Shown here: piece by piece, positions 5,208 through 49,372 of the stretch
How positions within the stretch are numbered: the stretch's first letter is position 1
Layout of the letters: every line of letters starts with the position of its first letter
Translations under genes and position numbers: made by a program
The notes under the pieces: generated by a model
What the model was told of the DNA's origin: nothing
The model's database searches: none
Seen by the model: only the letters and a program-made list of their open reading frames with translations
From: an uncultured Candidatus Saccharibacteria bacterium
GTDB lineage: Bacteria > Patescibacteriota > Saccharimonadia > CAILAD01 > BJGX01
DNA length: 64,000 bases
Assembly: GCA_964552475.1 (NCBI GenBank)
Contig: CAZKFZ010000006.1
Span: forward strand, 27-64,026
Reading direction: 5' to 3'

Positions 5208-5252
5208 AGTATTAGTATCTGGTAATAATGACTAAGTATCAAGCTAAGCTAG

Positions 5253-29318: not shown

Positions 29319-30656
29319 CTATTTAAGCACCTCGAAATTTACTCGAATATTATTTTCACTTAAGGGGTCTGCCACCGCTCGCCTATCTACAACTAGATTA
29401 GGTAGCCACACAATCTCATTATTTCTGTTAATTAGCACCGGCCAAATATCTCGCTTATCACGCGGTACTTTTTTATCTACAAAAACATCCTGCAATTTTT
29501 TACTTCCAGACATACCAACTGGATAAATTCTATCACCTTCTTGGCGATGTCTTACCATCAATCTTTGTTTGGCAACAACAATATTGTCTACGTTATTATT
29601 ATTAAAAGATTGGGGTTGAATTGTAACTCTAAACGTTTCATTTTCAAATGGCGACTGAGGTGTAAGAATGTGTGTAGACCTATCGCTATACCTTGCTGTG
29701 TTATCTGATTGACAGGTGACTTTTAGATTATCATAACCTATAGCCAGGTGCAAGCCATTTTTAAAGTGTTGGCTAGCACCGCTACGACCTTCTAGTAAAA
29801 ATTTTTCAGCCTGAGCAATATTGCTTTTGCTTAAATTTACGCCTGGCTTAATTTGTCGTACAACATACACTAGTAAGCTGGTGGCAATTTGTGGTGGCAA
29901 CTCTCTAAACTCTTTTTTGTCTATTAGAATAGTTTTTTCAGATCTTTCAGATTGAATCCTACCTAGTAGATCTTCTAGTTGATAATCTATTTGTTGATTG
30001 AGACGGCTTAGCTTGTGCAGACTTTGGGTAAAAGAATGGTGAAAATTGCGATACAACATACTGCCCTGGGGTACCAGTACATGGCGTACAAAATTTCGAC
30101 TAAAGCCAATATCTACATTGGTACTGTCTTCGTTGTATGGTAGTTTTTGTAACTGTGCGTAGGTAATAAGTTCGGCTTTATGAAATGGCAGTAGCGGCCT
30201 TACTAACACGCCACGGCGGGCTCGCATAGCTGTAATACCATGTCTGTCTGATCCTCTAATGGTGTTAAATATAGCTGTCTCAATGGCGTCGTCGGCATGA
30301 TGAGCGGTAACTATGTTGTCAAAGTTGATATCTTGTCGCAAGCTTTCTAGGTAATTGTAGCGAGCTTTGCGCAATTCTGCCTCACTCGTTTTTTTACCGC
30401 TGTATTTTTCTAGGTTAAACCTCATACCATACTTTTCGGCCAATTGTGCAGTTAGTTCGGCATCTTTATAGCTGTCTGGGCGAATTTTATGATCAAAGTG
30501 AGCTACTATAAATTGCCAGTTGTAAAATTGCTTGAGTTCAGCCAATAGGTGTAAGAGTGTCACAGAGTCTACCCCACCACTAACAGCCACCACTAGCTTA
30601 GATTGCGGGGGCAGCAAATCGGTGTTTTGAATATGGTTTTGAAACTTAGTTAGCAT
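29319..30656 (-). CDS. tilS: tRNA(Ile)-lysidine synthetase
   Basis: PP-loop VVAVSGGVDSVTLLHLL. Conserved position immediately upstream of ftsH. Confidence 0.8.
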   Translation of the reverse strand: MLTKFQNHIQNTDLLPPQSKLVVAVSGGVDSVTLLHLLAELKQFYNWQFIVAHFDHKIRPDSYKDAELTAQLAEKYGMRFNLEKYSGKKTSEAELRKARYNYLESLRQDINFDNIVTAHHADDAIETAIFNTIRGSDRHGITAMRARRGVLVRPLLPFHKAELITYAQLQKLPYNEDSTNVDIGFSRNFVRHVLVPQGSMLYRNFHHSFTQSLHKLSRLNQQIDYQLEDLLGRIQSERSEKTILIDKKEFRELPPQIATSLLVYVVRQIKPGVNLSKSNIAQAEKFLLEGRSGASQHFKNGLHLAIGYDNLKVTCQSDNTARYSDRSTHILTPQSPFENETFRVTIQPQSFNNNNVDNIVVAKQRLMVRHRQEGDRIYPVGMSGSKKLQDVFVDKKVPRDKRDIWPVLINRNNEIVWLPNLVVDRRAVADPLSENNIRVNFEVLK

Positions 30657-30736: not shown

Positions 30737-30813
30737 TGGTGGCTGCGGTAGGAATTGAACCTACGACCTCGGGCTTATGAGTCCCGCGCTCTAACCAACT
30801 GAGCTACGCAGCC
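30737..30813 (-). tRNA. tRNA-Met (anticodon CAU), elongator type
   Basis: Cloverleaf read on the minus strand: acceptor GGCTGCG/CGCAGCC, anticodon loop CTCATAA, CCA encoded. G1-C72 is paired and Y11:R24 is present. Acceptor and D-arm are near-identical to E. coli elongator tRNA-Met. Confidence 0.8.
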
Positions 30814-33270: not shown

Positions 33271-33777
33271 CTACGTAAGCTCATTTACCATCTGCTCAAG
33301 TACTACTTGTGTTGCAGCGTCATTGCGAATAACCTTTACATCAAGCTTCTGCGCCTCCTCTATCAAATACTCTTGTATCATTCGCACTGCTGTAAAGTTC
33401 TGTTCTGATTCATCTGTTTCTTTTCTTTTTTCGAAAAACTGTCTTTTGTGTATGGCCTCATCAAGACAAACCAACAAAAATACTTTTGCTTTATTGCGAT
33501 ACGGCGCTGGGTCTATAAACACTGCCTCAAGAATCACTTTATCATGCTCAACAAGCACTCTATCTACATCTTTGCGCATATAGTCTCTTACGTAGAGAAG
33601 TCCTTTCACAGTATTCTCTTTTGTAAGTGAACCATACTTTCGCCAAACAAACTTTGTGGCTGGGTACGGCCTAATATAATCACCTTCTATAAATGGAATC
33701 CCAGTTTTATATTGTAGTGCTTTGCTAATAGTAGTTTTCCCTGCGTCGGGAACACCGTATATCAAAACTTGGCTCAT
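33271..33777 (-). CDS. P-loop NTPase / small kinase-like protein
   Basis: Walker A GVPDAGKTT at the N-terminus. 168 aa. Its start overlaps the stop of the upstream surface-protein gene by 4 nt. Confidence 0.5.
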   Translation of the reverse strand: MSQVLIYGVPDAGKTTISKALQYKTGIPFIEGDYIRPYPATKFVWRKYGSLTKENTVKGLLYVRDYMRKDVDRVLVEHDKVILEAVFIDPAPYRNKAKVFLLVCLDEAIHKRQFFEKRKETDESEQNFTAVRMIQEYLIEEAQKLDVKVIRNDAATQVVLEQMVNELT

Positions 33778-36700
33778 ATCCTACTATTTCGTTTATTGGC
33801 ATAGAGACTTTGATAACCAGCTATGACTAGCCCAGCAATACCTGCGCTAACTAAAGCAATAGAAAAAATAACAAATATAGTTTTGTGTATATTTATACCG
33901 GTTTTTGCTAGCAACGATTCACCAACTGCTAACCCGATGGGGTCAGTAATTTTGCCGTCGGTAACGCCATCGGTGTCTAAGTTGCTGCCGTCAGTTATTT
34001 GATAGCTGGCTTTGGTGGCACTTTGGCCACCAACACTTACGCCGATGATGTTAGCACCATCTAAATTGGTGTAGGTATTACTATTAGGGTTGTACTTACG
34101 GGCGACAAAGCCTTGTGTAGCTACACCATAATAGTATTGAGTAACTGTAGTAGTTATACCGGGAGTGCCACAACTGAGGCTAAAGTTCATTAGCCCAGCT
34201 GGATAGTTGTAGTTAAGGTCTGGGGTGGTATTTACTGATTCTGCGGCTGTTGAAGCGGCGGTAATAGAGCACTCACTGCCTACCTCGAGAGTGGCATACT
34301 GCCCGGTGACAGGGTCAACAAAACTCGCTACATTGGCTTGCTCAGAGTCCGGGGTGTTGTCGCCGTTGGCATCGCCATTGTTGGGGGCGGCGGATTCGAT
34401 TTCGCTAGGTACTCCATCGTTGTCGTCTACTGGCGCGTTTGGGTCGTAAGTGTGTGTTACCAGACTATTGTTACTGAGAGTACTGAATGGATCTGTTCCG
34501 GTACCAAAAGCCTGACCAAATGTTTGAGCTTCTGGGTCTAGCTCATAGAACACCATAGCGCGGTTAAGAGTTGGTTGAGTTTCATCTATAGACTCTATGT
34601 TCACAACTATCTTAAAACTTACTGTCTGCCCGTTTGCGATGCTATCAAATCCAAAAACACAGGCTATAAAATGGCCAACGGTGCCCGGAAATGGCCAATC
34701 TTCGTGCGGGTCCTCGCAGCTCACATTGTCACCTATTACAGCGCTATACTCAACACCGTGAGGCAGAACATCAAAAATATACGTGCCACCAACTGCTGTG
34801 TCGGGCCCATGGTTGGTAAGACCAATAGTATAGGTAGCTTGTTGACCATTTTTGATTGTACCTGGCGCATCAAGAGTCTTAGTGATCTCAATGTCTACAA
34901 CTGGTGTAGGTACAAATGTATCATCGTCGGTGCCGCAATTATTGCTTTCGTCGATATCAATAATAGTTTGGCCCCCTAACCGGATAGGAGGGTCTATACA
35001 TACTTGACTTGTATCTAAGTTTCCAAAATTTTGCACATCACCACTCAATATCAAGGTAAGTGTTTCGCCAGACTTCAATAGACCAGACCAGGTATTACCA
35101 TCAAAGCTACCAGGCGATGTCGCGGTGGTGTTGTCGGAGTCTACTGAATACATATATGGATAAAGTACATTATTTGCACCCTGGAATGTAAAATGGTCAA
35201 CGTCACCCGGCCCGTTATTAGTGACGGTAAAGGTGTATTGATTCGGTTCTCCAAATACAGCGCTCGTAGTGCCATCGTCGCTTGTTACGGCCAAGTCTGC
35301 TTGCGGTTCATATTTACCAAATTCACTAGTTGGGCCAAAACCCGTAGGACTATCTGGATCAATCAGTGTGGCTGTCGCTGCAAGGTGTGTGTGACCTGTA
35401 CCGCTAACAGTAGTGGTAAAGTTTTGGCTACCGGTGCCGGTACTGGTGGCTTCGTCGTAGCCAAGGAAGGTTTCCCCCTCACCATAACCTGTCGGGTCAG
35501 CCTCTGTATTACTAAAGAATTCTATACGATAGTCGCCAGCGGGCACATCTAAGCTAAACCCTATATCGGTATTACCAGCGTTTTCGGTGGCCTGAGTAAT
35601 AATTGGGAAATTGAGCAAATCATTTGGGCCTGAATCGCCATCACCGGAATCATTTGCGGTTGGATAATTGTCGCCACCAGAACCGCCGCCTAGTTTTATA
35701 CCTGTGTAATTATTACTAAAAATAGAGTTGCCTAGAAATGGACTGTGTCCACTACCATAAAAAATCATACCAATACCATTAGCACCATTGAAGGCAATAA
35801 TATTACCTTCGCCCTGGTTTGTACCGCCAATCAGTGGTGCGGCTAAGGACGTCAAATGCACACCGTACTCTCCATTCCCAAGATCTATGGTATTTGTAAG
35901 ATCTGTACCTATGTGATTACCCTGTATTCTTGCACCAACTCCATCACCCATCCAAATCCCACTCGCTGTGTTACCACCTATTACATTATCTTTTATTAAT
36001 ACTCCGCTACAATCACCGCTACAACCTATTGATAGCCCGTGACCAGCATTTGGTATCTTAGCCGTGCCTGTCGAGTTAGTTCCAATTAGATTATTCTCGA
36101 TAGTTGCGACATTAAATGAAAGTGCCACCCCATAATTACTATTGCCAGAAATAACATTGCCATCATTTATGCCTGGCCCCCCAATCATTAGATTAATAAA
36201 CCCACCATAGGCCCCAATACCGTTATTTGTATTTGGTAGAGCTGCCGTACCGGCATGGTTTGTGCCAATCTTGTTACCCTTAATTATTGTATTTGTGTGC
36301 GTACCATACCAAAAGCTAATACCCCTACCTATTACTCCAGATATCAAATTGTTAGCAATAGTGGTGCCTGTGCTAGGGGCTACATTTATACCGCCGTAAC
36401 TATCTATTCCTAATGATGTTGTACCAGCAATATCTGTGCCAACAATGTTATTTTTAAACATTGTGTTATTACCGTTAATCCAAAGGCCATATTTACCAAA
36501 TAGATTCATGTCGGTAGAATTATTTCCACCAACCGTTGAGTCATTTCCAGATACGCTTAGACCGATGCGTGTTACCGTGCTAACAGCTGTTGTACCATCT
36601 GCGCTCGTTCCAAAAAAATTACATCTTACTATATTGGTGTCGCTTTGGGTCTCCAAATATGCATTGCCAGTGCCAAACACCAGCCCATTGATCTCTGAGC

Positions 36701-37070
36701 CAGCAGCATTTGCGCTAGTAGTAATCAATGGGCTATTTTCTATAACAACTTTTAGGGTTGAGCTAGTGCCGTTACAAACAGACCCAGATTGAGACATCCC
36801 ATTTATTTTGAGTTGATCGGTAATAGTAATCCCGCCTGTTGTGAGTGCAATAGTATGCGGGCCGGCGCCGGAAATATTAAAGTCTATTTGGTCTGCTCCA
36901 GCATTATTGTTGGCATCGGTAATAGCTTGCCTTAAACTACCGGCACCAGCATCGTCGGTAGTAGTAACGGTATAAGTTGCAGCCTTGGCGGCGTGCGGCA
37001 GTGTTAAAAATCCAAAAGCTAGAGCAATGACCGGTAGTACTAAGAGGAGTTTGATCTTTGTTCCTGTCAT
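33774..37070 (-). CDS. 1098-aa secreted right-handed beta-helix surface protein with C-terminal LAxTG-type sortase signal
   Basis: Signal peptide. Dozens of G/N/T-rich parallel-beta-helix-like repeats (NNLISG, IKGNKIGTN...). C-terminal LAKTG plus hydrophobic segment plus KRNSRI tail. Confidence 0.6.
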   Translation of the reverse strand: MTGTKIKLLLVLPVIALAFGFLTLPHAAKAATYTVTTTDDAGAGSLRQAITDANNNAGADQIDFNISGAGPHTIALTTGGITITDQLKINGMSQSGSVCNGTSSTLKVVIENSPLITTSANAAGSEINGLVFGTGNAYLETQSDTNIVRCNFFGTSADGTTAVSTVTRIGLSVSGNDSTVGGNNSTDMNLFGKYGLWINGNNTMFKNNIVGTDIAGTTSLGIDSYGGINVAPSTGTTIANNLISGVIGRGISFWYGTHTNTIIKGNKIGTNHAGTAALPNTNNGIGAYGGFINLMIGGPGINDGNVISGNSNYGVALSFNVATIENNLIGTNSTGTAKIPNAGHGLSIGCSGDCSGVLIKDNVIGGNTASGIWMGDGVGARIQGNHIGTDLTNTIDLGNGEYGVHLTSLAAPLIGGTNQGEGNIIAFNGANGIGMIFYGSGHSPFLGNSIFSNNYTGIKLGGGSGGDNYPTANDSGDGDSGPNDLLNFPIITQATENAGNTDIGFSLDVPAGDYRIEFFSNTEADPTGYGEGETFLGYDEATSTGTGSQNFTTTVSGTGHTHLAATATLIDPDSPTGFGPTSEFGKYEPQADLAVTSDDGTTSAVFGEPNQYTFTVTNNGPGDVDHFTFQGANNVLYPYMYSVDSDNTTATSPGSFDGNTWSGLLKSGETLTLILSGDVQNFGNLDTSQVCIDPPIRLGGQTIIDIDESNNCGTDDDTFVPTPVVDIEITKTLDAPGTIKNGQQATYTIGLTNHGPDTAVGGTYIFDVLPHGVEYSAVIGDNVSCEDPHEDWPFPGTVGHFIACVFGFDSIANGQTVSFKIVVNIESIDETQPTLNRAMVFYELDPEAQTFGQAFGTGTDPFSTLSNNSLVTHTYDPNAPVDDNDGVPSEIESAAPNNGDANGDNTPDSEQANVASFVDPVTGQYATLEVGSECSITAASTAAESVNTTPDLNYNYPAGLMNFSLSCGTPGITTTVTQYYYGVATQGFVARKYNPNSNTYTNLDGANIIGVSVGGQSATKASYQITDGSNLDTDGVTDGKITDPIGLAVGESLLAKTGINIHKTIFVIFSIALVSAGIAGLVIAGYQSLYANKRNSRI

Positions 37071-39025
37071 ACTCTACCCCGTTGTTTCTTTTTGGAATAA
37101 ACTCTGTGTCCTGTAAGGCCAGCGACACCTAATACTCCTGCGGCAATGAGAGTTAGTGCGATGAATAATCGTTGGTTGGTGTGCTGTGGCTGCCCGGTGT
37201 TGGCTAGTGAGCTGGAGTTGCCAGAGGGGCTAGGAGTAGGTGTTGGGGTTGGTGGTACTGGTACTGGTGCGGCAATGGCTTGTACTGGAGCTGAGAATTC
37301 TGAGCTGTGGCCATAACCATCACTAGATACATCGGTCATGGTAGTTACGGCAGTAACATAGTAGTCGGCAGGCACAGAACCGGGGAGATTAAGAGTAGCC
37401 GATTGGCCAGTGACAGAGCCTGGCACAATATCTGAGCCAAGATAAATAGCCCCTTCACGATCACTTGTTGAATTGGCATAAAAATCTACACTGTAGCCAG
37501 TAGCCCCTACCTCGGCTGGATTAATGTCGAGGTCGTAATTGACAGTTACTTGGCCACTACCCTTTGTGGCAGAGTTGATGACAGGGAAGTTCATAAACAT
37601 ATTGGGGCCAACATCGGGGTCGCCAGCATCATTGGGATAAGGCTCAGGGGTGTCGCAGACAAAATTACTGTCTGTGTCGTTACATAAGCGTATGCCACTC
37701 TCAGTGTTTTGTTCTATGTCGTTACCGATGATGGTATTGTTTAATGGTGCATCACCAAAGCCAGCAATATTTATTGCAAACACACCGCTGCCAGTACTAC
37801 CGGCAATCTTATTGCCTTCACCCACGCCAGTACCACCAATAAGGATATCGTGACTATTATTGGCCATTGCGACACCAGAGGTATTACTTAAACCTGGGGT
37901 AACATCACCATTCTTATCAGTGCCAAAGTAGTTACCCTGAATAGTATTACTAGAGGATTCGAACATAAGTATGCCACCCCATATAGCAGTATTGTTTGTT
38001 ATGACATTACGGGCTGCTACTGATGTGCCTCCAATAATATTGTTGCTACCACCCGATAAGCAAATACCGCCTATGCCATCATTTGAAAGCGGCGCAAGCC
38101 CAGTAGCATCTAACCCAATATAGTTACCTTGAATAGTATTATTGGACGCCCCTTCCCCTTGTATACCGCAATTACCATTACCCGATATAACATTCATTGC
38201 ACCCGTTGCTGTACCCCCGACAGTAACATTCCCTGAGCTCATAAATATACCATCATCGACATTACCTATATCGGCAATACCATTAGCTGCTACACCGATA
38301 TAATTACCTTGTATTACAGTACCCATACTAGTGGACATACCAAACCCCGAATTTCCCGAAACCAAGTTCCGTTCGGCAGGGTTTGTACTACCCACATGTA
38401 CCCCTGTACCCCCGGTTGAATTTGATATACCTCTTTTATTACCCAAATCTACTAAACCGGTGGTATCTGTCCCTAAGTAATTACCAAAGACATTGATGTT
38501 GTTGTTGACACCATTACTAATACGTATGCCATTATTATCAAACCGGTTTATAACTAAACCTCTAATAGTCGAGTTGCTAGTATTTATATTAAGACCATCA
38601 CACCCATTACCGGCACTTCCCCCATCAATCTCAATCGTTAGTGTGCCATTAAAAGGGTTAGGTGATATGGCAGTATTGACAGCTGAGCCGGGTTGAGAGT
38701 AACCGTCTATAGTCACAGACTGAGTAATGTCATCAAAACAAGAAGCTGGTTGAATGGTGTGTACCCCAGTGCCAGATATACCAAAGTCTATGGTATCGCC
38801 ACCAGTGCCAGCATTCACTTCTTGAATGGCCGCCCTAAGAGTACAAGTATCTAGGGCTGTATGGCAGGCCAGGTCGCCAGGATTGTCGTCGGCTTCATCG
38901 CCAATAGAATCGACAGTGTAAGTAGTAGCGGCTTTGGCAGAGTGTGGTTGTAATACAAAAGCAATGGCTAATGCAATAGCACACATTAGTAGTGTTAGCG
39001 AAATTGTTTTATTATGTATCCTCAT
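37067..39025 (-). CDS. 652-aa secreted beta-helix surface protein with Pro/Thr linker and C-terminal LANTG sorting signal
   Basis: Signal peptide, beta-helix-type repeats, and a PVPVPPTPTPTPSPS linker. LANTG plus TM plus KKKQRGRV tail. Overlaps the downstream gene by 4 nt. Confidence 0.6.
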   Translation of the reverse strand: MRIHNKTISLTLLMCAIALAIAFVLQPHSAKAATTYTVDSIGDEADDNPGDLACHTALDTCTLRAAIQEVNAGTGGDTIDFGISGTGVHTIQPASCFDDITQSVTIDGYSQPGSAVNTAISPNPFNGTLTIEIDGGSAGNGCDGLNINTSNSTIRGLVINRFDNNGIRISNGVNNNINVFGNYLGTDTTGLVDLGNKRGISNSTGGTGVHVGSTNPAERNLVSGNSGFGMSTSMGTVIQGNYIGVAANGIADIGNVDDGIFMSSGNVTVGGTATGAMNVISGNGNCGIQGEGASNNTIQGNYIGLDATGLAPLSNDGIGGICLSGGSNNIIGGTSVAARNVITNNTAIWGGILMFESSSNTIQGNYFGTDKNGDVTPGLSNTSGVAMANNSHDILIGGTGVGEGNKIAGSTGSGVFAINIAGFGDAPLNNTIIGNDIEQNTESGIRLCNDTDSNFVCDTPEPYPNDAGDPDVGPNMFMNFPVINSATKGSGQVTVNYDLDINPAEVGATGYSVDFYANSTSDREGAIYLGSDIVPGSVTGQSATLNLPGSVPADYYVTAVTTMTDVSSDGYGHSSEFSAPVQAIAAPVPVPPTPTPTPSPSGNSSSLANTGQPQHTNQRLFIALTLIAAGVLGVAGLTGHRVYSKKKQRGRV

Positions 39026-39095
39026 AAACTATTATTTATGATATATATTTTAGCATAAGAGTAATAGGTAGCGAAAGGTTAGGGCAGATTTATAT

Positions 39096-40754
39096 TTAAT
39101 GCCTGCCTTTGGGAGTTTTGGTGGGGTTACCAAAGAACTCCAAGCCTTTGGCGTTTTTTAGTGTCTCTTTTAGTTCTTTTTGATGAGTGAGCATATAAAG
39201 CAAACTGCCTATGCGACGAGGCAATGATGCAGTATTGTTGGTAATAACTTTTTTGAGCTTGGGGTTGCCACTTAGCCCAGACATCTTTAACGCATTGTCA
39301 GTAGTATCGGCATACTGCACAGCCTCGGCAAAACCTCGGCCAATATCTTTGCCTTCTCTATTTTTGAGAATTACTGCGCCCTCATTATACTGTGCTCCAT
39401 TGGCAAAAAAGTTGGTTTGCCCTCCAGGTACTATTTGAGTCATGCTAAATCGCCGGATGTCGGCTGGCATAGTATGGTCAAAACTAAAGTGCCACTCGTT
39501 GGGGTGCCATACATTGGTGATTGGATACAGTTCAGGATTCGAACTTAGCTTGGCCTGTATCCACTTGGTAATCTTAAGATTTCCCCAAGTGTTATGCATT
39601 TCACCGTTCTCATCCATATATTTGCCAGCTACCGGTATAGTCATAGTAGGCGGTGAGTCTGGGCCAGTCTGAAAATAATAGCTGAGGTATTTTTTGCTAT
39701 GTGCAGCAAACATAGTAATTTGTCTGTCGCCATCGAATTGCGCCATGTACCAATCCCAACCAGCTGGGCCAGGAGCCGAAATATTGTTGGCAGCCCTCAA
39801 CACTTCTGATTGCGGATTACCGCTCAAAAATCCCCATTGATGATCAAACCACATTAAGCCCTTTTTGAGCTTTACTGTCTCGTCGCCATACTGCAAAGTG
39901 CTGCCGGCACTTACTTGTATATTGGGAATAGAATAATAAAGTGAGCCGGTGCCAGCCACTGATGGCATAGCGCCATCATCGCCTTGCAATAAATAATCTT
40001 TGCCGCCAGTGAGCTTGAGATCTAGCGCTATAATGAATGGTTTGTCGGTAGAACGGTCTACTCCACGAGCTTGTATAGTGAGTGGTGTAAGTTCTTTGCC
40101 GCCAGTACCAACTATGCTGTTTTTGCCCAACACATATTTGAATGGTTTGGCTTGGAATTCTATGAGTCCTGAAGTACCAGCAATAACTGTTGGGTCGGCC
40201 TGGTGATGCATATCACCGGCTTTGGATATACCTAGCTGGATTTCTACTACTTGGTTTTCGATATCGGTTAGGCCAAATTTCTTGGCTAGCTCTGGTGCCA
40301 AAATAGTTTGGCGAAAGAACATCAGCTCTACCCCATACTCTTGGCCGTCTTCAGCCCAAACGCTACCCACAAAGAAGTGCCAACCAACTTGGCTAGTAAA
40401 TTTGGGCTGGTGATCGCGCGGAAACTGCAAGTTGGCAGACTCTGGCATTTGGTCAAAAAACTGCGTGGTGTTGTTACCCAAAAATCTGGTAGAGATAATA
40501 TAGGCTTGGTGCGGTGTAAGACCATCAATAGCTTTTGATAGCTCGGTATATCTTTCTTGGTAATTTGGGTTGTGGCTTTGTTGTTTATCTAATAATAATT
40601 TAAGATAGGCACGCATGCGCTCGCCATAAGCCTCTGGTGAGTGTTTTTCTGATTGGATTTTTTCTTGAATATCTTTTGGAATTTTATTTATATCAAAATC
40701 TTCTAGCCAAAGAGAGTCGGCTATATATTGAGAGTTTGGGATATTGTTATGCAT
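39096..40754 (-). CDS. AttH/CrtC-like (hydroxyneurosporene-synthase / lipocalin-like) domain protein with N-terminal extension
   Basis: WFDHQWG motif resembles the conserved W-[FY]-DH-[EQ]-W-G element of the CrtC/AttH family. 552 aa; no obvious signal peptide. Confidence 0.35.
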   Translation of the reverse strand: MHNNIPNSQYIADSLWLEDFDINKIPKDIQEKIQSEKHSPEAYGERMRAYLKLLLDKQQSHNPNYQERYTELSKAIDGLTPHQAYIISTRFLGNNTTQFFDQMPESANLQFPRDHQPKFTSQVGWHFFVGSVWAEDGQEYGVELMFFRQTILAPELAKKFGLTDIENQVVEIQLGISKAGDMHHQADPTVIAGTSGLIEFQAKPFKYVLGKNSIVGTGGKELTPLTIQARGVDRSTDKPFIIALDLKLTGGKDYLLQGDDGAMPSVAGTGSLYYSIPNIQVSAGSTLQYGDETVKLKKGLMWFDHQWGFLSGNPQSEVLRAANNISAPGPAGWDWYMAQFDGDRQITMFAAHSKKYLSYYFQTGPDSPPTMTIPVAGKYMDENGEMHNTWGNLKITKWIQAKLSSNPELYPITNVWHPNEWHFSFDHTMPADIRRFSMTQIVPGGQTNFFANGAQYNEGAVILKNREGKDIGRGFAEAVQYADTTDNALKMSGLSGNPKLKKVITNNTASLPRRIGSLLYMLTHQKELKETLKNAKGLEFFGNPTKTPKGRH

Positions 40755-40839
40755 AAGAGTTATTATAGCAAACTTATGTTTTTAACAATCTCTTTTGTAT
40801 CGAAAAGAAAAAGAACTCAACATAATATTGAGTTCTTTT

Positions 40840-40859
40840 CTTGGTAGCGGGGGCAGGAT
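40840..40859 (-). repeat. partial copy 1 of the tRNA-fMet 3' end (T-stem 3' half, acceptor 3' strand, ACCA, AG) with adjacent terminator-like hairpin
   Basis: Exact 20-nt match (cttggtagcgggggcaggat) to the 3' end of the tRNA gene at 41188-41262. Preceded by hairpin gaactcaa...ttgagttc and a T-run. Confidence 0.7.
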
Positions 40860-41009
40860 GGTTCGGCTTACGCCGTACCTCCGTAAAGTGCTTGGTCAAA
40901 GCGCAAATCAATTTGCTTTTGACGCTGCGCGCTTTACTCTACCGAACCTTTGGGTTTCGAACCGCACACATTATGCAAGATAAAAGCACAACCGTAGTTG
41001 TGCTTTTAT

Positions 41010-41029
41010 CTTGGTAGCGGGGGCAGGAT
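41010..41029 (-). repeat. partial copy 2 of the tRNA-fMet 3' end with adjacent hairpin
   Basis: Exact 20-nt match. Preceded by hairpin gcacaac-cgta-gttgtgc and a T-run. It lies 170 bp from copy 1 and 176 bp from the copy inside the tRNA gene. Confidence 0.7.
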
Positions 41030-41187
41030 AGCGGCTACGCCTTCTCCGCTCATTCGTGCTCGAAACAAGTTTCTGTGCGCGAAATCGCTACGCCGAACCA
41101 GCGACATGCCAAATAAATTTGGCGTCGCAGAACCGTATCTAGCTCAATACCAAGAAAAAGACTCAACACAAGGTTGAGTTCTTTTCT

Positions 41188-41262
41188 TGGTAGCGGGGGC
41201 AGGATTCGAACCTGCGACCTCCAGGTTATGAGCCTGACGAGCTGCCACTGCTCTACCCCGCG
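41188..41262 (-). tRNA. initiator tRNA-fMet (anticodon CAU)
   Basis: CGCGGGGTAGAGCAG...GCTCATAACC...GGTTCGAATCCTGCCCCCGCTACCA is collinear with E. coli tRNA-fMet. Positions 1:72 are mismatched (C:U). A11:U24 is present in the D-stem. CCA is encoded. Confidence 0.8.
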
Positions 41263-41339
41263 TTGTCGTCAGACAACGATACATTGACCGTTGAAATATT
41301 GGTGATACTTGGAAATTATAGCGCAAAAACTATAATTAT

Positions 41340-41856
41340 TCAACCCTTGCAGCTCCCCGACCCTTAAAAGTATCAGAAAAGAAAAGCAGTTGGCTGCTTC
41401 TGTTTTGAGGACTTGCCTGACGCTTCTTAAACTTGTTTAAGAAAGGAGTCCCGCAGAAACAGAAAAGGCAACTGGTTTTATGCTTCTATATACTTTTACG
41501 GTGTCGATAGCTTTGGTTCTTTGGCTTATCAAAGAACCGCTGTCTGCGTAGGACATAAAGTCTGTGCGAACAGCACAATAAGATAAAATTTAAATTAAAA
41601 AAGGTTTCGCTCTTTTAGGGAGCAATCTTCTTTTGTATGGTTAAACCCTTACATGGAAAACTAGATCCCGGATCTGGAGCGCTCCGCTTCCAGTCCGGGA
41701 TGACGGTGAGGGGTGTTGCTGCGGGACTCCTTCCGACTTCGTTCGGAGCGTTAGACAGTCCTCACATCTAGCAATGAGATGTATTCTATTCACGTTAGGG
41801 TAGCTCGATAGCCAGGGGGAATTAGCTTTATGATATTCGAGAGTTGAGGAGGAAAG
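41340..41856. ncRNA. structured non-coding element 1, bounded by nested imperfect inverted repeats (candidate novel ncRNA or MITE-like element)
   Basis: Outer inverted-repeat arm gaggacttgcctgacgct (41407-41424) pairs with agcgttagacagtcctc (41746-41762). Inner arm ggagtcccgcag (41445-41456) pairs with ctgcgggactcc (41718-41729). Internal hairpin ggttctttg...caaagaacc (41514-41538). No ORF. Confidence 0.45.
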
Positions 41857-41862
41857 ATTGTA

Positions 41863-42255
41863 TTAACCGCCAAACAAAAAGTCTCGCCATTGTTGCCAAT
41901 TGGACTTTTCGGCGTCTATTTCTTCTTGGGTTTTTAAATTAACAGCCTCGACCTGTACTGATTGTGTGCCAACACTATCTTTTTTGACAATTACCACCGA
42001 CTCACCAGGCTTTTGCATGCCCAAGTTTTCACGCGCTAACTTGTCTTGATAACTATCAGTACGATAATAAGTAATTTTGTAACCCAATTCTTCTATTTGG
42101 GATTGCATTTGGGCAATTTGAGCTTCTAGCTCTTCAGACTTAGAGCGCAACTGATAATTCTTGCCGGTTTCGTTGGTAAGAATTGCAAACATATACAAGA
42201 TGATGATGAGGCCTATCCAAAAGGCGGCTTTGGTAAAGTTGAAAACTTTTTTCAT
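41863..42255 (-). CDS. FtsB/DivIC-like septum-formation initiator (N-terminal TM plus coiled coil)
   Basis: 130 aa. TM AAFWIGLIIILYMFAIL, then a heptad-rich segment (EELEAQIAQMQSQIEELGYKI) typical of the FtsB/DivIC family. Confidence 0.5.
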   Translation of the reverse strand: MKKVFNFTKAAFWIGLIIILYMFAILTNETGKNYQLRSKSEELEAQIAQMQSQIEELGYKITYYRTDSYQDKLARENLGMQKPGESVVIVKKDSVGTQSVQVEAVNLKTQEEIDAEKSNWQQWRDFLFGG

Positions 42256-42432
42256 TAAACTACGCCTCTGGCTTCGCTTAATAGAAAAGATTGAAAATTA
42301 TGATGCATTTTTAATAAATGGCCTAAATAAGCGAAATGGAGATGCAGAGACTTTGTTGTACTATGAAGGATAAACGATTTATTTTTCATATGTTTATTTT
42401 ACCATAAGCTTTGATAATTATTAGTTGGAATT

Positions 42433-42952
42433 GAATTTACCACCTCCTCTCGACTCTCGAACTACATTCGGTCCTCTTCCGGCTATCGAACTACTAACTC
42501 CTGTACTTGCCCTCACTTCTCGGCTCTCGAGTATCAGAAAACTAAATACCAACAAGTGTTTATTGTTCGAGGACTTGTCTGAAGCTTAGCGAGTCCCGCA
42601 GAACAGAAAGCTTATTGGTATTGAGTGCTTCTAGATATGAGCCCGAGTCGTAAGTTTTTGTCTCATCTCAATGCTTATCAAAAAGTGAGTTGGCCCTAAA
42701 GGGCCGAAACCTTTTTATTTATCAAATAATAAATTATTTATTTTATGCACTTCCTGTGCAGGGGTTCTTTGTATGAGCAAAGAACCAAACTCACCAACTC
42801 GAACTCACAACTTTATGGATTGCTCTGAATTTTCTAAGATGAAGCTGCGGGACTCCTTCCGTCTTCGATCGGAGCGTCAGACAAGTCCTCGCTTCTATCT
42901 TTAGAAAATATCTTCACAATCTTTCAGGTTGCTCGAGAGTCGGGGAGGAGGA
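42433..42952. ncRNA. structured non-coding element 2, paralogous to element 1 (same nested inverted-repeat architecture)
   Basis: gaggacttgtctgaagct (42569-42586) pairs with agcgtcagacaagtcctc (42872-42889). gagtcccgcag (42591-42601) pairs with ctgcgggactcc (42844-42855). Outermost pair cctcctctcgactctcg (42445-42461) with cgagagtcggggaggagg (42933-42950). Hairpin ggttctttg-tatgag-caaagaacc (42763-42786). Confidence 0.45.
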
Positions 42953-42965
42953 AGGAAGGGACAAA

Positions 42966-44222
42966 TTAGTATTTAAAAGTGTGTTTGTGCGACGCACGCA
43001 ACGGCTTGTCTAGTTGAGTTGGCTTAGTAGCCAATCGCTCCAACCTGGTTTGTTTATGATTGTCTTCGCTCATTTGCCACAACACAATATTTACCTGGTC
43101 TTTATCAAGAGTCAGCTCTAGCCAACTCAGCTGATTAAGCGAGACATAAGTATTGGGTAAGCCCAGGTGAGCCTTGGTGGTATATATCATCTCTACCCCG
43201 CAGCCACTATTGGCAAAAAAGCCCTCACCAAAATCATTTATAACTGGGCGGTGAGTGTGGCCGGTAATAAGGCCGATGGTATTAGACTTGTTGATCTCGG
43301 ACTTAGCTTTGGTGCGGGCAGCTTCATTGTGACCTTCACCAGCATGACCACCAGGCATTGTCTTGGCCCGAGCAAGTATTTTGCGCGCAATAAGTGCAAT
43401 AGCTGTCAATATTACTGCAATACTGCTTATAACTACGAGACTGGTATAAATAATTATGCGAATTACTTCGTTGGCAGGCATACCATAATAAGCAAATGCA
43501 CCATAGCCAACTAACAATAGTAGACCAAAGATAATAACTAGCGGTACAATCAACCACCACAGACGATTGAATATTTCTCTATACATTAGTCGTGAGGCTA
43601 CAAACTTAGCAAACTTATGTGGCTCAGCCAGATGATTAATGCCATCTAGCATACTACCTTGAGTGGCTTGAGCCATAGGTAGAGCCTCTTGTACCAAGTA
43701 TTGACCAAAAGGCTTATCGTTGGGGTCGCGCGGGTCAGTAAATGCATTGTCGCTGTCTAGCATATGACCATGCTCAAATAAAATCGACCTTGTGGACTTA
43801 CCAGTTTTGATTTTTAATTGCAGCGAAAAACATATTTGCGCGTCAAACTTGTCTATTAGTATTTGTTGCTGAGTATTGTCCCAACCCAGTCTGCCGTCGT
43901 GATTACCAACTGTAAAAATAACTCCATGATGAGATTTTTGACCAAATTCTTGGAGAGCTTTGGTTAGTCTGGGGTGAGCCAATAAAGCCTTGGTGACACT
44001 AGGTTCTTTACCAGCCCACAACTCAAAGATATCACCATTGAGAACAATATTAGCCGACTTTAGCTTGGTCAGTTCGGCAATTCTTTGCCCTATCACTTTC
44101 TCAACATTATGACTAGCCTTGGTGGCCTGACCACTCAAATGGATATCACTAATAACCAAGACCGATGTTGGCAACGTAACATTGAGAGTGAGTTGGTCTT
44201 CAACTATGTTCTTTGATTGCAT
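42966..44222 (-). CDS. membrane-associated calcineurin-like metallophosphoesterase
   Basis: VLVISDIHL and GNHDGRL metallophosphoesterase motifs. Two to three TM helices in the middle (LWWLIVPLVIIFGLLLLVGYGAFAYY...). Confidence 0.6.
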   Translation of the reverse strand: MQSKNIVEDQLTLNVTLPTSVLVISDIHLSGQATKASHNVEKVIGQRIAELTKLKSANIVLNGDIFELWAGKEPSVTKALLAHPRLTKALQEFGQKSHHGVIFTVGNHDGRLGWDNTQQQILIDKFDAQICFSLQLKIKTGKSTRSILFEHGHMLDSDNAFTDPRDPNDKPFGQYLVQEALPMAQATQGSMLDGINHLAEPHKFAKFVASRLMYREIFNRLWWLIVPLVIIFGLLLLVGYGAFAYYGMPANEVIRIIIYTSLVVISSIAVILTAIALIARKILARAKTMPGGHAGEGHNEAARTKAKSEINKSNTIGLITGHTHRPVINDFGEGFFANSGCGVEMIYTTKAHLGLPNTYVSLNQLSWLELTLDKDQVNIVLWQMSEDNHKQTRLERLATKPTQLDKPLRASHKHTFKY

Positions 44223-44296
44223 ATCTAGTAATGTATCAGTTATAGGCCAATAAAAAAAGCTGTAAGGTTATTAATCTTGACTCTAGCGATTATTAA

Positions 44297-46243
44297 CTAG
44301 GCTTTTTTAGCAGCTTTTCTTAATCGTCTTCTTATTTCTTCAGAATTGAGAGCATAGACCGAGCCAAGTATTAGTAAGCCCGCCAAGCCACCGCTCGCTA
44401 GATTACCTCCAGCGTTAGCCAAAGATCCGCCGCCAGGTGTAGTAGGTATTGTAACTGTTGCAGAACACCCCCCAGTTGTTTGTCCAGAGCCCGTTACGGT
44501 GGCTGTATAAGTTGTCGTGGCGGTAGGCGCTACTTCTACCTCACCCCCACCTACTGGCGTAACTGTACCTATGTCTTGGTTTATAGACATACTTGTGGCA
44601 TTTGTAGATGTCCATGTAAGAAATGAGCTTTCACCACTAGTAATAGAGGCGGGGTCGGCTGTAAGTGTACAGCTAGGACTTGCCGGAGTATCATTGACAG
44701 TAATAGTCGTCGTACTAGAGCCCTCCCCTCCAGGGCCCGTCACCTTACATGTATACACTCGCGTAGCCGCCGGCGTCACCGTAACACTACCGCTGGCTAC
44801 TGGATTGACTGACACGTCAGTGCCTGCCGTTACAGTATCTATAGTAACATCTGTGGCATCTGTGGTTGTCCAGCCTAGGGCTGAACTACCGCCTGCACCA
44901 ATGGTGCTTGGGGTGGCTGTCAGCGTACAAGTAGGTGCCGGGGTATCGGTAACCGTAACAGTAACGGCATTACAGTCAGCTGTTCCACCAGGGCCCTCTA
45001 CAGTGCCAGAATAGGTAGTGGTAACGACAGGACTCACCGATGTACTACCACTAGCTACTGGATTAACTTCGCCTATGCCGTTGTCGAGTGTAAGTGTTGT
45101 GCCATCAGTGGTTGTCCAGCCAATCGACGAGCTCCCACCACTCGCAATAGTACTCGGTGTAGCCGTCAGCGTACAGGTAGGTGCGGTGATAAAACTAGTT
45201 TGATCAGTACTCCAAAATGGGCGGTAGCTATAACTTGATAGAGCACCACTATTGAGCACGCCCGGGCCACCATCGGCAGCGGGCACATTGGCCACCAACT
45301 GTATATTGCTACCATCGGCGTCCATGGTAACAAGCTCGGTCAAATTATTACTGGGGTTGAAGCGCACCGCAACTATTTGTGTTCCATCTGGAGAATAATA
45401 GCCACCTATATAGTCATTGTTGTCGTTGGTAATGGCTGTCGCAACACCACCAGGCGTTCTAGTGGTTGTCATTAATTGATCGCCTTGGCCTGATACCTTA
45501 CTATTACAATTAAATTGATCGTTACTTGTATAGAGTAATGTTTTTCCATCATTAGGGTGAATATCGTTGAGTCGGCAAACTAAGTCTTGTGTTGAAGCAT
45601 CTGTAGTAACATCTAGCGCCGTAACTTGGTTGGGCGTAGAAGCGTCAACGCGTCTTATATTATTTTGGTTGGCAATATACACATGTGCCCCACCGGGGCC
45701 CCATACAGGGTTTTGGCTATTAGTGCCGTTAATTTGATTGGTTAAGGTAATATTGTTGCTACCATCGGCATTCATCACATGTACTTCGCGTTCGCCACCA
45801 TTATTGGTAGTGTAGACTGCAAATGCTATTTTGGAGCCATCATTGTATACCGCTGGTTCTTGCATGCTTCTAGTACCGCTACCAGAAGGGCAGGTAATTT
45901 GAGTACCAGCTGGCGTAAGGGCATTGGTAACGCTAAACATACCCACGTTGCTTAGAGTACCAGAAGTACATTGGTTGGGATAATATATATCTGTTCCGGC
46001 CGGGTTATACACCGCCGCCCATTTGTTCGAACTGACAGTACTTGGTATATTGGTGTCTTTTATATCAGTGCCGTCGGCAAATATGGAGTAGTGAGTGCTT
46101 GGTGCGGCCCAAAGAATACGGCCATTTACGCCAGGAGTTTGAGCGCGTGCAACGCCAAAAGGTGTAAGCAAAAGCGTTACACCCACAATTGTAGAGATAC
46201 TTAATCTAAATAATTTCTTGATATGATTCTGTATTTTTTTCAC
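44297..46243 (-). CDS. secreted surface protein: TolB-like beta-propeller repeats plus three ~70-aa Ig-like repeats, C-terminal TM anchor with variant sorting-like motif
   Basis: Signal peptide. DGS/NADGSN repeats. Three repeats sharing TCTLTATPSTI.GGSS.LGWTTTD. C-terminal SLANAGG...LAGLLILGSVYAL plus RRRLRKAAKKA. Confidence 0.5.
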   Translation of the reverse strand: MKKIQNHIKKLFRLSISTIVGVTLLLTPFGVARAQTPGVNGRILWAAPSTHYSIFADGTDIKDTNIPSTVSSNKWAAVYNPAGTDIYYPNQCTSGTLSNVGMFSVTNALTPAGTQITCPSGSGTRSMQEPAVYNDGSKIAFAVYTTNNGGEREVHVMNADGSNNITLTNQINGTNSQNPVWGPGGAHVYIANQNNIRRVDASTPNQVTALDVTTDASTQDLVCRLNDIHPNDGKTLLYTSNDQFNCNSKVSGQGDQLMTTTRTPGGVATAITNDNNDYIGGYYSPDGTQIVAVRFNPSNNLTELVTMDADGSNIQLVANVPAADGGPGVLNSGALSSYSYRPFWSTDQTSFITAPTCTLTATPSTIASGGSSSIGWTTTDGTTLTLDNGIGEVNPVASGSTSVSPVVTTTYSGTVEGPGGTADCNAVTVTVTDTPAPTCTLTATPSTIGAGGSSALGWTTTDATDVTIDTVTAGTDVSVNPVASGSVTVTPAATRVYTCKVTGPGGEGSSTTTITVNDTPASPSCTLTADPASITSGESSFLTWTSTNATSMSINQDIGTVTPVGGGEVEVAPTATTTYTATVTGSGQTTGGCSATVTIPTTPGGGSLANAGGNLASGGLAGLLILGSVYALNSEEIRRRLRKAAKKA

Positions 46244-46361
46244 GGTTTATTTTTGGTTTTTCTTACACCTATGTGCTTATGTTTAATTCTACTCTACACA
46301 CTATCTGAACGTCAAGTGCTTTTGCATTGAAAAGCAAGCGTAACCTGTATACTATATAAGT

Positions 46362-47591
46362 ATGGACAAATATCGGTTATTCAATGACGACATGGCTCCT
46401 CTAAGCCACAACTTATCTTCGGGTGTTTCTAGATTTATAAAACCAATAGACGAAGATAGTGAGCAGATTGAGGGTTATTTTGTATCGCAAAGTGACACCA
46501 ATCAAGTACAGATGTCGCCACAAGCTATGGAAAAAATAGCCTTATATTTTGCTGAAGAACAAGATAATATCGACTATAGCCCTAGCGAAGCATCAGCCAG
46601 AACAATTGCGCTTCAGGCCAGATTACGTGAGTCGCGCAAATCAAATCGTCACTCTGCGGTGCCTAGCTACTTCTCCCCTCCATCGGCCACTACCACTCAC
46701 CACAATAGTGGCAAAAAAAGAACCAACACCGCCAAGGCTGATTTTTTGCGCGCCAAACGTACCCATACTGCCATGCAAGACGACTACCAGCTTGCAGCTA
46801 GCTCGGCAGAGGTGGACTTAATGGTGAGTATTCCTGGGCAAGTCTATACCCCCGGTAAGTCTGGCCACGAGCAACACCTGCAGCGGCGGGCTCAAGCTAG
46901 CTATCAGCGTACGCACGGCCATAAACGCCATGCCTATGTGCCCGATACTGACGAGCGAAACCTCATTAATAAACACATCAAAAACCCTCACGCCAAAACC
47001 ATCCTTACCGCCGTGGCCACACTGACCGGGCTGTACTTAATTTTTGGCCCAATGCTACCTGGCCTGCTCAAGGTATCATCATCTGTGGTAGGAACTGGCA
47101 ATAAAAATCATGCACAAGCTGACCAGTCTGAGTCTAAGGCCATTGCCCAAAGTGGCCTCACCCCACCGGCCGAGGCCCCCAAAGAGTTGGCGGTCAATCA
47201 GGTAGGTTGGCTCAACATACCAGTTATTGGCGTTGGCGCACCCATAGTAGAGGGTAAAGACGACAATGCTATGACTTATGGCATTTGGCACCGCCCCGGC
47301 ACCGGCACCCCTCTTACAGATAGCAACACGGTTTTGGCTGGTCATAGATATCAATATGTAAACGGTCCGCGCACCTTTTATTCGCTAGACAAAGTAAAGG
47401 TGGGTGATCCTGTAGAGGTAAAATGGGGTGAGCAGACTTTTCGTTACAAGGTAGTGCGCACCTTTGTGGTAGAAAAAGACAAGATGTATATTGAAGCTCC
47501 CACTACCGTGCCACTTTTAACTATCTATACCTGTACTCCGCTCTGGACGTCTACCAATCGCTTAGTAGTGCAAGCTACACCAATTACATAA
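46362..47591 (+). CDS. sortase (transpeptidase; class E-like by substrate motif) with ~210-aa cytoplasmic low-complexity N-terminal region
   Basis: C-terminal catalytic domain has His in VLAGHR, Cys in LLTIYTCTP (TLxTC) and Arg in TNRLVV. A TM helix (ILTAVATLTGLYLIFGPMLPGL) precedes it. Confidence 0.7.
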   Translation: MDKYRLFNDDMAPLSHNLSSGVSRFIKPIDEDSEQIEGYFVSQSDTNQVQMSPQAMEKIALYFAEEQDNIDYSPSEASARTIALQARLRESRKSNRHSAVPSYFSPPSATTTHHNSGKKRTNTAKADFLRAKRTHTAMQDDYQLAASSAEVDLMVSIPGQVYTPGKSGHEQHLQRRAQASYQRTHGHKRHAYVPDTDERNLINKHIKNPHAKTILTAVATLTGLYLIFGPMLPGLLKVSSSVVGTGNKNHAQADQSESKAIAQSGLTPPAEAPKELAVNQVGWLNIPVIGVGAPIVEGKDDNAMTYGIWHRPGTGTPLTDSNTVLAGHRYQYVNGPRTFYSLDKVKVGDPVEVKWGEQTFRYKVVRTFVVEKDKMYIEAPTTVPLLTIYTCTPLWTSTNRLVVQATPIT

Positions 47592-47603
47592 GATTTTTAG
47601 TTA

Positions 47604-47939
47604 ATGCAAGAACTCGACTCTAACCAGGCTAGGCCCAAAATACAAAAGTTTGTGCCGCACAAATCTCTACAAGAAATACGCGAACAAGAATCGCCTTATC
47701 ATAGCTATGTAGATTTTGAAGGCAGCGAGATAATATCGCCCAACCAAATGCAATTGGTCTCTCCAGACAAGCTCCCTGCAGGCAACGTAACACCTTCGGC
47801 TACTCAAACTGCATATTTACAGGCAAGGGTAAATCAAGCTCGCCGGTTGCACCCACCCGAGCCAGACCAAACAGTAGTAGACCCAGTGGGTGTTACCGCT
47901 CAAATTCAAGCCAAGATAGACGCTCAAAAGAAAAAATAA
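47604..47939 (+). CDS. hypothetical protein, probably co-transcribed with the sortase
   Basis: 111-aa ORF starting 13 nt after the sortase stop; no motif. Confidence 0.3.
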   Translation: MQELDSNQARPKIQKFVPHKSLQEIREQESPYHSYVDFEGSEIISPNQMQLVSPDKLPAGNVTPSATQTAYLQARVNQARRLHPPEPDQTVVDPVGVTAQIQAKIDAQKKK

Positions 47940-47986: not shown

Positions 47987-48331
47987 TTACCACCTAGATG
48001 CTTGACGTTGCCTCTGGGCAATAATTTCGGGATGTCGACTTTCCATATGCACGGCCTGAGATCTTAGGTCGTCTTTTGCCAGCGATACCCCACAACCAGG
48101 TGCTGGGCAGGCAATAGTGCTGGGGTCTTGTTGTGTTACACTTTCTACCCTCTCGCCCAAAGCTTGTTTAATGAGCTCATGATCGCGAGTTGCAGTTGCG
48201 CTATGTCCTTCCCAGCATTGTAGTTTTACCACCGCTGGATCGTCGGTTTCTTCAATGCAAATATAGTTGCCGCCACAATTGCCACAATTGATTGGCCCAT
48301 ATGTGTAACCTTGCAAGACAGCCAAGGCCAT
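47987..48331 (-). CDS. Cys-rich hypothetical protein, GC-rich
   Basis: 114 aa with CGNCGGNYIC and CPAPGC. Confidence 0.3.
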   Translation of the reverse strand: MALAVLQGYTYGPINCGNCGGNYICIEETDDPAVVKLQCWEGHSATATRDHELIKQALGERVESVTQQDPSTIACPAPGCGVSLAKDDLRSQAVHMESRHPEIIAQRQRQASRW

Positions 48332-49296: not shown

Positions 49297-49372
49297 TGGT
49301 GGGCCTGGTAGGAATTGAACCTACGACCAATCGGTTATGAGCCGACTGCTCTAACCACTGAGCTACAGGCCC
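49297..49372 (-). tRNA. tRNA with anticodon CAU, most similar to tRNA-Ile2 (lysidine-modified)
   Basis: GGGCCTGTAGCTCAGTGGTTAGAGCAG...CTCATAA...TTGGTCGTAGGTTCAATTCC. The D-arm and variable/T-arm closely resemble E. coli ileX. G1-C72 is paired, so it is not an initiator. Confidence 0.55.

Follow-up and report, generated by a model that had tools for sequence, protein, structure and literature searches.

The question raised by the locus described here is whether three large surface-protein genes and a nearby sortase gene in the chromosome of a candidate phyla radiation (CPR) bacterium make up a system for anchoring proteins to the cell wall, and which of the three proteins such a system would display. 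The locus lies at positions 33271-47939 of a 64-kb stretch of DNA, the whole of which was analyzed and is called the window below. Its host is an uncultured, ultrasmall bacterium of the CPR (Patescibacteria), and the nearest loci belong to metagenome-assembled genomes (MAGs) filed as uncultured Candidatus Saccharibacteria. As a whole the window is a stretch of ordinary chromosome, encoding PolA, RpoD, DnaG, LepA, MurJ, FtsH, TilS, LexA, enolase and a two-component system; because MurJ is a lipid II flippase, its presence fits a peptidoglycan-containing envelope. Our analysis indicates that the locus probably encodes a chromosomal sortase-dependent wall-anchoring system by which all three proteins would be displayed, and that its sortase carries a cytoplasmic extension that may serve as an accessory region like that of SrtE1 of Streptomyces coelicolor. 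It is essentially a conventional sortase system, following the textbook scheme, in an understudied phylum; in the literature on CPR genomes that we searched, sortases are mentioned only in passing (PMC7143001).

The open reading frames (ORFs) on which a preliminary description of this DNA had been built were all found again at the same coordinates. Two groups of genes lie on the minus strand, one encoding proteins of 652, 1098 and 168 aa and the other a 552-aa CrtC/AttH-like protein, tRNA-Met, DivIC/FtsB, a membrane metallophosphoesterase and a 648-aa protein. The sortase gene is divergent from the 648-aa gene, with a 118-nt spacer between them. Domains were assigned with Pfam and NCBIfam models and sortase classes with NCBIfam models, structures were predicted with AlphaFold (AF2) and compared with the PDB by Foldseek, and 80 sortase loci from CPR MAGs were kept for comparison.

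The sortase gene (46362-47591, plus strand) encodes 409 residues, comprising an N-terminal extension (aa 1-213), a transmembrane (TM) helix (aa 214-236, nt 47001-47069), a linker and a catalytic domain (aa ~279-409, nt 47196-47588). The Pfam Sortase model PF04203 matched aa 284-407 with E=1.7e-25 and 89.6 bits (cut-off 26.6), covering 124 of its 125 profile positions, and TIGR01076 scored 74 bits (cut-off 39.35). In alignments of 11 and 51 sequences, conservation of H328, C391 (within a TCTP motif) and R400 is complete or at least 90%. The AF2 model of aa 279-409 is confident, with a predicted local distance difference test (pLDDT) score of 87-97, and its top Foldseek matches are sortases without exception, from classes A, C, D and E (E 1e-10 to 1e-12); as modelled, the catalytic domain is a sortase fold, an eight-stranded beta-barrel. 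No second sortase was found in the window. The earlier identification of the C-terminal domain of this protein as a sortase with a His/Cys/Arg triad, the only one in the window, was thus correct. Distant relatives of the enzyme are encoded by Dojkabacteria, Berkelbacteria, Peribacteria and other Patescibacteria, and scanning metagenome contigs with the sortase protein gave no confirmed relative.

All NCBIfam class models scored the enzyme far below their cut-offs: 76.6 bits for SrtD (cut-off 140), 72.6 for class C (NF033745; 160), 70.5 for class D (165) and 59.4 for class E (NF033747; 160). Four CPR relatives likewise fell far below the cut-off of every class model; with the class E model, CPR relatives scored 58-68 bits, and the Acidimicrobiales class E controls P0027 and P0052 scored 166 and 172 bits. 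Selection of the Ala at position 2 of LAxTG has been proposed to depend, in SrtE1, on Y229 of the GHY motif, which lies in the beta3/beta4 loop (PMC5148588). The class E sequence GPGHY aligns with GIWHR in the window sortase, so that this Tyr is replaced by Arg311; CPR relatives have W-[HRA]-R-P at the site, the Arg being near-invariant in the CPR clade. The preliminary description had suggested class E from the LAxTG motif. Membership of that class was ruled out by the hidden Markov model (HMM) score together with the missing specificity Tyr. The class E trait of LAxTG-bearing substrates is nevertheless present here, in the form of LAKTG and LANTG, and LAxTG prevails in CPR homologs. The window enzyme thus probably resembles class E in the signal that it would read, yet is not a class E member. 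These scores and alignments place it in a CPR clade that none of the curated class models recognizes.

Comparison with solved structures gives a similarly mixed picture. Like SrtE1 and SrtE2 of S. coelicolor (PDB 5CUW; PMC5148588), the window sortase is accompanied by candidate LAxTG substrates and combines an N-terminal TM anchor with a catalytic domain predicted to be extracellular; it shares a cytoplasmic N-terminal extension with SrtE1, and the catalytic fold matches with a Foldseek E of 1e-10. It differs from them in its class E score, in having Arg311 at the S3 subsite occupied by Tyr229, in the orphan nature of its extension and in its host, which belongs to the CPR and not to the Actinobacteria. 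Class C and D sortases (PDB 8T28, 4D7W, 4D70) provide its best sequence match among solved structures (52.8 bits) and its best class scores, and share the TCTP motif. However, these scores are far from the cut-offs of 140-165. A class C (pilus) assignment was also rejected on structural features, since there is no DP[FWY] lid in aa 237-283, no C-terminal TM helix and no pilin motif [YFW]PK in the three substrates.

The three large proteins share a signal-peptide-like N-terminus, an L-A-x-x-G pentapeptide near the C-terminus, a hydrophobic stretch and a tail rich in Lys and Arg. Tails built in this way were found in no other ORF of the window, and none of 2000 shuffles of the tails reached three matches. 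Across the 80 fetched loci, about 25 large proteins with L-x-x-T-G tails adjoin CPR sortases, with A, P, V, T or H at position 2.

The protein most closely tied to the sortase is the 648-aa propeller protein (44297-46243, minus strand). A signal peptide is followed by a TolB/YVTN-like beta-propeller, three immunoglobulin (Ig)/PKD-like repeats of ~85 aa, the pentapeptide LANAG (nt 44408-44422), a short hydrophobic segment and the K/R tail. The AF2 model (mean pLDDT 78.8) shows the propeller and three Ig/PKD-like domains, in agreement with PD40 and TolB HMM matches and the DNA repeat family D1, and the top Foldseek matches are 1L0Q and TolB (E 1e-12 to 1e-10). Its architecture is that of the archaeal S-layer YVTN propeller-PKD protein 1L0Q (E=1.2e-12), and it aligns with TolB over 320 columns at a root-mean-square deviation of 4-5 A; it differs in carrying a sortase-type anchor signal and in not belonging to a Tol-Pal system, and identity is 14-18%. 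LANAG is kept in the orthologs P0120 and P0121, and LANSG takes its place in P0119 and in loci L001-L007; four propeller orthologs retain one or the other, though their propellers have diverged to 58-62% identity. Ala at position 4 has a precedent in Staphylococcus aureus, where two LPxAG proteins are known as sortase substrates of SrtA (PMC3436756). The window signal differs in having Ala at position 2, and the window enzyme is of another clade; cleavage of LANAG or LANSG is here a prediction from sequence.

Two side observations concern this gene. Patescibacterial proteins with the same Ig-like repeats (P0122-P0144) in many cases end in 'LSQIPYTG(L/F)D', a TM helix and a cytoplasmic C-terminal domain of 200-300 aa; the motif is LPxTG-like and is not a classical sorting signal. 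Moreover, identity between window positions 45103-46408 and L001 positions 4675-5980 is mosaic, with 92% DNA identity across the intergenic region and the propeller gene's 5' half, 77.5% in the adjoining sortase gene and 70% in the metallophosphoesterase gene, which suggests recent recombination between lineages.

The other two candidate substrates are right-handed beta-helix proteins. The 652-aa protein (37067-39025, minus strand) has a signal peptide, a CSLREA N-terminal motif (TIGR04214, 29.7 bits against a cut-off of 25), the beta-helix (NosD matched weakly, 21.3 against 23.6), a P/T linker, LANTG (nt 37193-37207), a TM segment and the K/R tail. Among its best homologs, 69 of 119 carry a sorting-signal tail, nearly always LAxTG (x = N, D, S, T, G, A or P), LANSG or LAESG being the signal in a few. 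Those homologs among the hits that come from Gram-negative phyla are without such a tail and have, for example, TSEFS-type C-termini. The 1098-aa protein (33774-37070, minus strand) consists of a signal peptide, a beta-helix (Pfam Beta_helix), two DUF11 repeats, a choice-of-anchor U domain (NCBIfam choice_anch_U), LAKTG (nt 33897-33911), a TM segment and the K/R tail. The N-terminal domain of the former is that of CSLREA proteins, and the U domain of the latter stands just before the anchor signal, as in choice-of-anchor proteins (NF041766). These two groups have thousands of homologs, of which CPR members end in LAxTG and Gram-negative ones lack the sorting-signal tail. The description of the three proteins as two beta-helix proteins ending in LAKTG and LANTG and a TolB-propeller/Ig-repeat protein ending in LANAG, each signal followed by a hydrophobic anchor and a K/R tail, could be confirmed in all three, the segment of the 648-aa protein being short. 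The proposed check of these motifs in orthologs also came out in its favor, both for the propeller protein and for the 652-aa homologs.

We also examined the 213 hydrophilic residues that precede the single TM helix found by hydropathy. Basic residues lie on the N-terminal side of this helix, which places aa 1-213 in the cytoplasm and agrees with the ~210 cytoplasmic residues proposed earlier. The characterization of this region as low-complexity did not hold, as its entropy of 3.3-3.8 bits per 30 aa is the same as in the catalytic domain. Nor is the region unusual, since SrtE1 and its Streptomyces homologs have cytoplasmic N-terminal extensions of 100-200 aa, whose deletion impairs function (PMC5148588). 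AF2 models the extension as four isolated helices with pLDDT mostly <50, so that it is predicted to be mostly disordered. In orthologs its reading frame is free of stops, with an excess of substitutions at third positions (41/35/85 and 63/44/104, compared with 2/1/44 and 14/8/69 in the catalytic domain), and by this measure it does code for protein. Its evolution is faster than that of the catalytic domain, with 72% and 63% amino-acid identity in two orthologs versus 98% and 87%. Among 1.84 billion representatives, relatives of the extension were found in its own lineage only (P0004 and the 180-aa P0357), and all other CPR sortases align only from about aa 205 on. The same extended sortase, at 75% identity, occurs on a 3.5-kb contig (CAYMKU010000110.1, locus L006) filed under an Ignavibacteriaceae MAG, which is probably a mis-binned CPR contig. 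The class E sortases P0027, P0052, P0100 and P0015 of Acidimicrobiales have an extension of another kind, unlike that of the window sortase: ~90 residues past the catalytic domain, with hydrophobic segments (…WGF…LLWFFFGA…).

A hydrophilic ORF of 111 aa (47604-47939, plus strand) begins 12 nt 3' of the sortase gene and has no Pfam or NCBIfam match and no TM helix. It follows the sortase in L001-L007 and is absent from 77 other CPR sortase loci, so that it occurs solely beside N-terminally extended sortases. A BLASTP comparison between the extension and the 111-aa ORF found no similarity (E=22). One known sortase partner is SafA, a small membrane protein associated with the housekeeping sortases of Actinobacteria (PMC9282373). 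The 111-aa ORF is likewise a small gene linked to a sortase, but its product lacks a TM segment and would be cytoplasmic; therefore it would not be an analogue of SafA in topology. Next to it, on the minus strand, lies a Cys-rich ORF of 114 aa (47987-48331) with CGNCGG...C and CPAPGC motifs and no family match, which is also found, with 82% identity, beside the sortase unit in L005.

Taken together, these features suggest the following course of events. The three precursors would be exported through the Sec pathway by their N-terminal signal peptides, and their hydrophobic C-terminal segments and K/R tails would keep them in the membrane. The sortase, with its N-terminus inside and its catalytic domain outside, would cleave after position 4 of LAx[T/A/S]G, form a thioester between Cys391 and the substrate and then transfer the protein to a peptide amino group of lipid II or peptidoglycan. 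The cell would in this way display the propeller-Ig protein, encoded by the conserved divergent neighbor, and two adhesin-like beta-helix proteins from a variable slot nearby. By analogy with the SrtE1 tail, the extension may act from inside on stability, localization or partner binding, perhaps together with the co-transcribed 111-aa protein.

Comparison with related genomes showed how the parts of the locus are linked. MAG CAYZYH01 (loci L205/L206 and L005) is collinear with the window through LepA, MurJ, FtsH, TilS, an abhydrolase, one beta-helix gene, the CrtC-like gene, the tRNA, DivIC and the metallophosphoesterase, and its housekeeping proteins are ~95% identical to those of the window; the 1098-aa, kinase-like and 194-aa genes are missing from its slot. 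In L208, three beta-helix genes and a G5 protein gene fill the slot, which has the CrtC-like gene on one side and the 194/151/297-aa genes on the other. The number of beta-helix genes with sorting signals per slot is one in L205 (8859-10799), two in the window (33271-39025) and three in L208 (2543-9332). From these comparisons the slot looks like an array of surface-protein genes that varies while the backbone stays fixed. The order propeller/sortase/111-aa is kept in L001-L003 and the sortase/111-aa pair also in L004-L007; in L001 the unit lies beside a dihydroorotase-like gene and a restriction-modification system. Across the loci compared, the unit of propeller, sortase and 111-aa genes is the sole constant linkage.

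The preliminary description had proposed a modular, possibly mobile adhesion cassette, and integration of such an island at a tRNA gene has some features in its favor. Downstream of tRNA-Met(CAT) (41188-41262, minus strand; ARAGORN, Rfam), the last 18 nt of the tRNA (ATCCTGCCCCCGCTACCA) recur exactly at 41012-41029 and 40842-40859, with a spacing of 170-176 nt and a terminator-like hairpin after each copy, so that three exact matches (repeat family D3, 40842-41262) stand within 420 nt where none is expected. Gene content 3' of the repeats differs in L205, in which a pair of orphan genes absent from the window, of 470 and 189 aa, comes after two copies of the tRNA 3' end (4577-4845), and L205 lacks the 1098-aa and kinase-like genes. 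G+C content is also slightly higher in the locus (0.43-0.47) than in its flanks (about 0.38-0.42). However, this shift was discarded as evidence of transfer, as it is too small and would be expected from the amino-acid composition of Gly/Ala/Thr-rich surface proteins. No integrase, transposase or relaxase was detected in the 44 scanned ORFs of the window, and a search of the window that allowed up to 3 mismatches found no further copy of the tRNA 3' end; the locus is not enclosed by the three copies. Relatives have the sortase, propeller, CrtC-like and 652-aa genes on the same housekeeping backbone, and the flanks are collinear with theirs (LepA, MurJ, FtsH, TilS, DivIC, LexA). On this gene order the locus is not a mobile cassette and lies among conserved housekeeping genes, and we consider integration of an island very improbable. 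Of the tRNA integration site suggested earlier, the 3'-end repeats beside the tRNA and the altered gene content just downstream in L205 stand, and the idea that they delimit the locus does not. The array looks, from these comparisons, like a local hotspot for insertions and deletions.

Several points weigh against the anchoring scheme proposed above. Every step of it rests on sequence and models, from an organism not in culture. The 64 kb analyzed are only part of the genome, and two sortase loci per genome are found in several other CPR MAGs of the fetched set, so that the LAxTG proteins could be served by a different sortase. Behind LANAG the hydrophobic segment has ~14 residues, below the 19-residue TM threshold. 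A role for the poorly modelled extension is argued by analogy with SrtE1, and the link between the extension and the 111-aa ORF is suggestive only, as the loci that have both are all close relatives from a single lineage. In another arrangement, the window sortase would process only the propeller-Ig LAN[A/S]G protein, with a housekeeping sortase elsewhere for the LAxTG beta-helix proteins. In its favor are the pairs of sortase loci in other MAGs, the Ala or Ser in place of Thr at the cleavage position of the propeller signal and the position of the beta-helix slot, which lies 7 kb off behind housekeeping genes and varies independently of the constant unit. We regard this arrangement as unlikely, since a second sortase was found neither in the window nor, among the 80 loci kept, for two related MAGs, and since beta-helix homologs occasionally end in LANSG or LAESG, so that T, S and A may all fit the range of one enzyme. 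It is also conceivable that the pentapeptides are never cleaved and belong to plain membrane anchors, the sortase having other substrates that we did not see; the departure of LANAG from the canonical Thr and the short segment behind it would agree with this. Such an explanation has very little to recommend it, because the pentapeptide keeps a fixed distance from the hydrophobic segment in dozens of diverged homologs whose flanking linkers differ, the chance expectation is near zero and the 648-aa gene is adjacent to the sortase gene. A wall-anchoring system for all three proteins therefore remains the reading that we prefer.

Three features go beyond routine annotation: a CPR sortase clade outside the curated classes with Arg in place of Tyr, the LAN[A/S]G signal of the partner protein and the orphan cytoplasmic extension. 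The locus offers a concrete set of enzyme and substrates, namely a single sortase, a propeller-Ig substrate constantly linked to it and a beta-helix array of variable content. Its signal consensus could help to list the wall-anchored surface proteome of CPR genomes, and the Arg of the CPR enzymes versus the Tyr of class E is a small, testable point concerning recognition of Ala at position 2. A bolder proposal, which we hold to be doubtful, is that CPR sortases form a separate, uncharacterized class with an Arg S3 subsite (W-H-R-P) and a relaxed signal, L-[A/P/V]-x-[T/S/A]-G, joined in this lineage by an orphan 213-residue domain and a 111-aa protein that control the time and place of anchoring. 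CPR bacteria in cultivation grow attached to other bacteria, with their surface proteins as the likely points of contact. If the proposal were true, cytoplasmic control of anchoring could matter for the attachment of an epibiont to its host.

A kinase-like gene of 168 aa (33271-33777, minus strand) completes the first minus-strand group. Its P-loop (AAA_18) match scores 29.8 bits against a cut-off of 29.4, and it has weak partial matches to small-molecule kinases. The start of the 1098-aa gene overlaps the stop of the 652-aa gene and the start of the kinase-like gene overlaps the stop of the 1098-aa gene, both as ATGA, forming an operon-like trio. The reported translational coupling of this gene to the beta-helix pair is thus supported by the overlap, and a role in the locus is not, as the gene is not conserved in relatives: no homolog was found in any fetched locus, and it is missing from the equivalent slot in L205 and L208. 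It was rejected as a component on these grounds and is probably not part of the anchoring system. On the other side of the slot, the 552-aa CrtC/AttH-like lipocalin protein (39096-40754, minus strand; PF07143 at 1.1e-18) has no signal peptide and is 88-95% identical in L205 and L208 at the equivalent position. It borders the beta-helix slot as a conserved neighbor and is no sortase substrate.

Two non-coding elements of ~0.5 kb, both on the minus strand, flank DivIC. Element 1 (~42440-42960) lies between the metallophosphoesterase gene and DivIC (fold z=-8.8; repeats D7 and I11), and element 2 (~41349-41860) between DivIC and the tRNA promoter (fold z=-9.5). Both have long terminal inverted arms (I10, I11, D7) and no ORF, and they are paralogous in the arms only. 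L001 has element 1, which L205 lacks, the gap there measuring 37 nt; element 2 is absent at the orthologous site of L001, with a remnant of only its 3' half in L205. Rfam searches of 40700-43000, at the gathering threshold and at E<=1, returned tRNAs and noise only. A 16-mer core of the elements had 120 matches in metagenome contigs, none with a second arm or extended similarity and all attributable to chance, and the element junctions, inspected for a target-site duplication, align poorly with L001. The two structured RNA-like elements reported earlier are thus real, and their behavior is that of repeats resembling miniature inverted-repeat transposable elements (MITEs). From their arms and distribution, two copies of a MITE-like, non-autonomous repeat would be the best reading.

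The ~170-nt units between the tRNA 3'-end copies were also considered as structured RNAs and set aside, their fold z values of -0.6 and -2.5 being unconvincing. Compared with L001, the array of 3'-end copies is 92-96% identical, and neighboring genes have 70-78% nucleotide identity. Three tRNA genes with a CAT anticodon occur within 19 kb (30737-30813, 41188-41262 and 49297-49372). One of them stands directly beside tilS (29319-30656) and may encode a lysidine-modified tRNA-Ile2, and the acceptor stem of the tRNA at 41188-41262 contains a C1/U72 mismatch.

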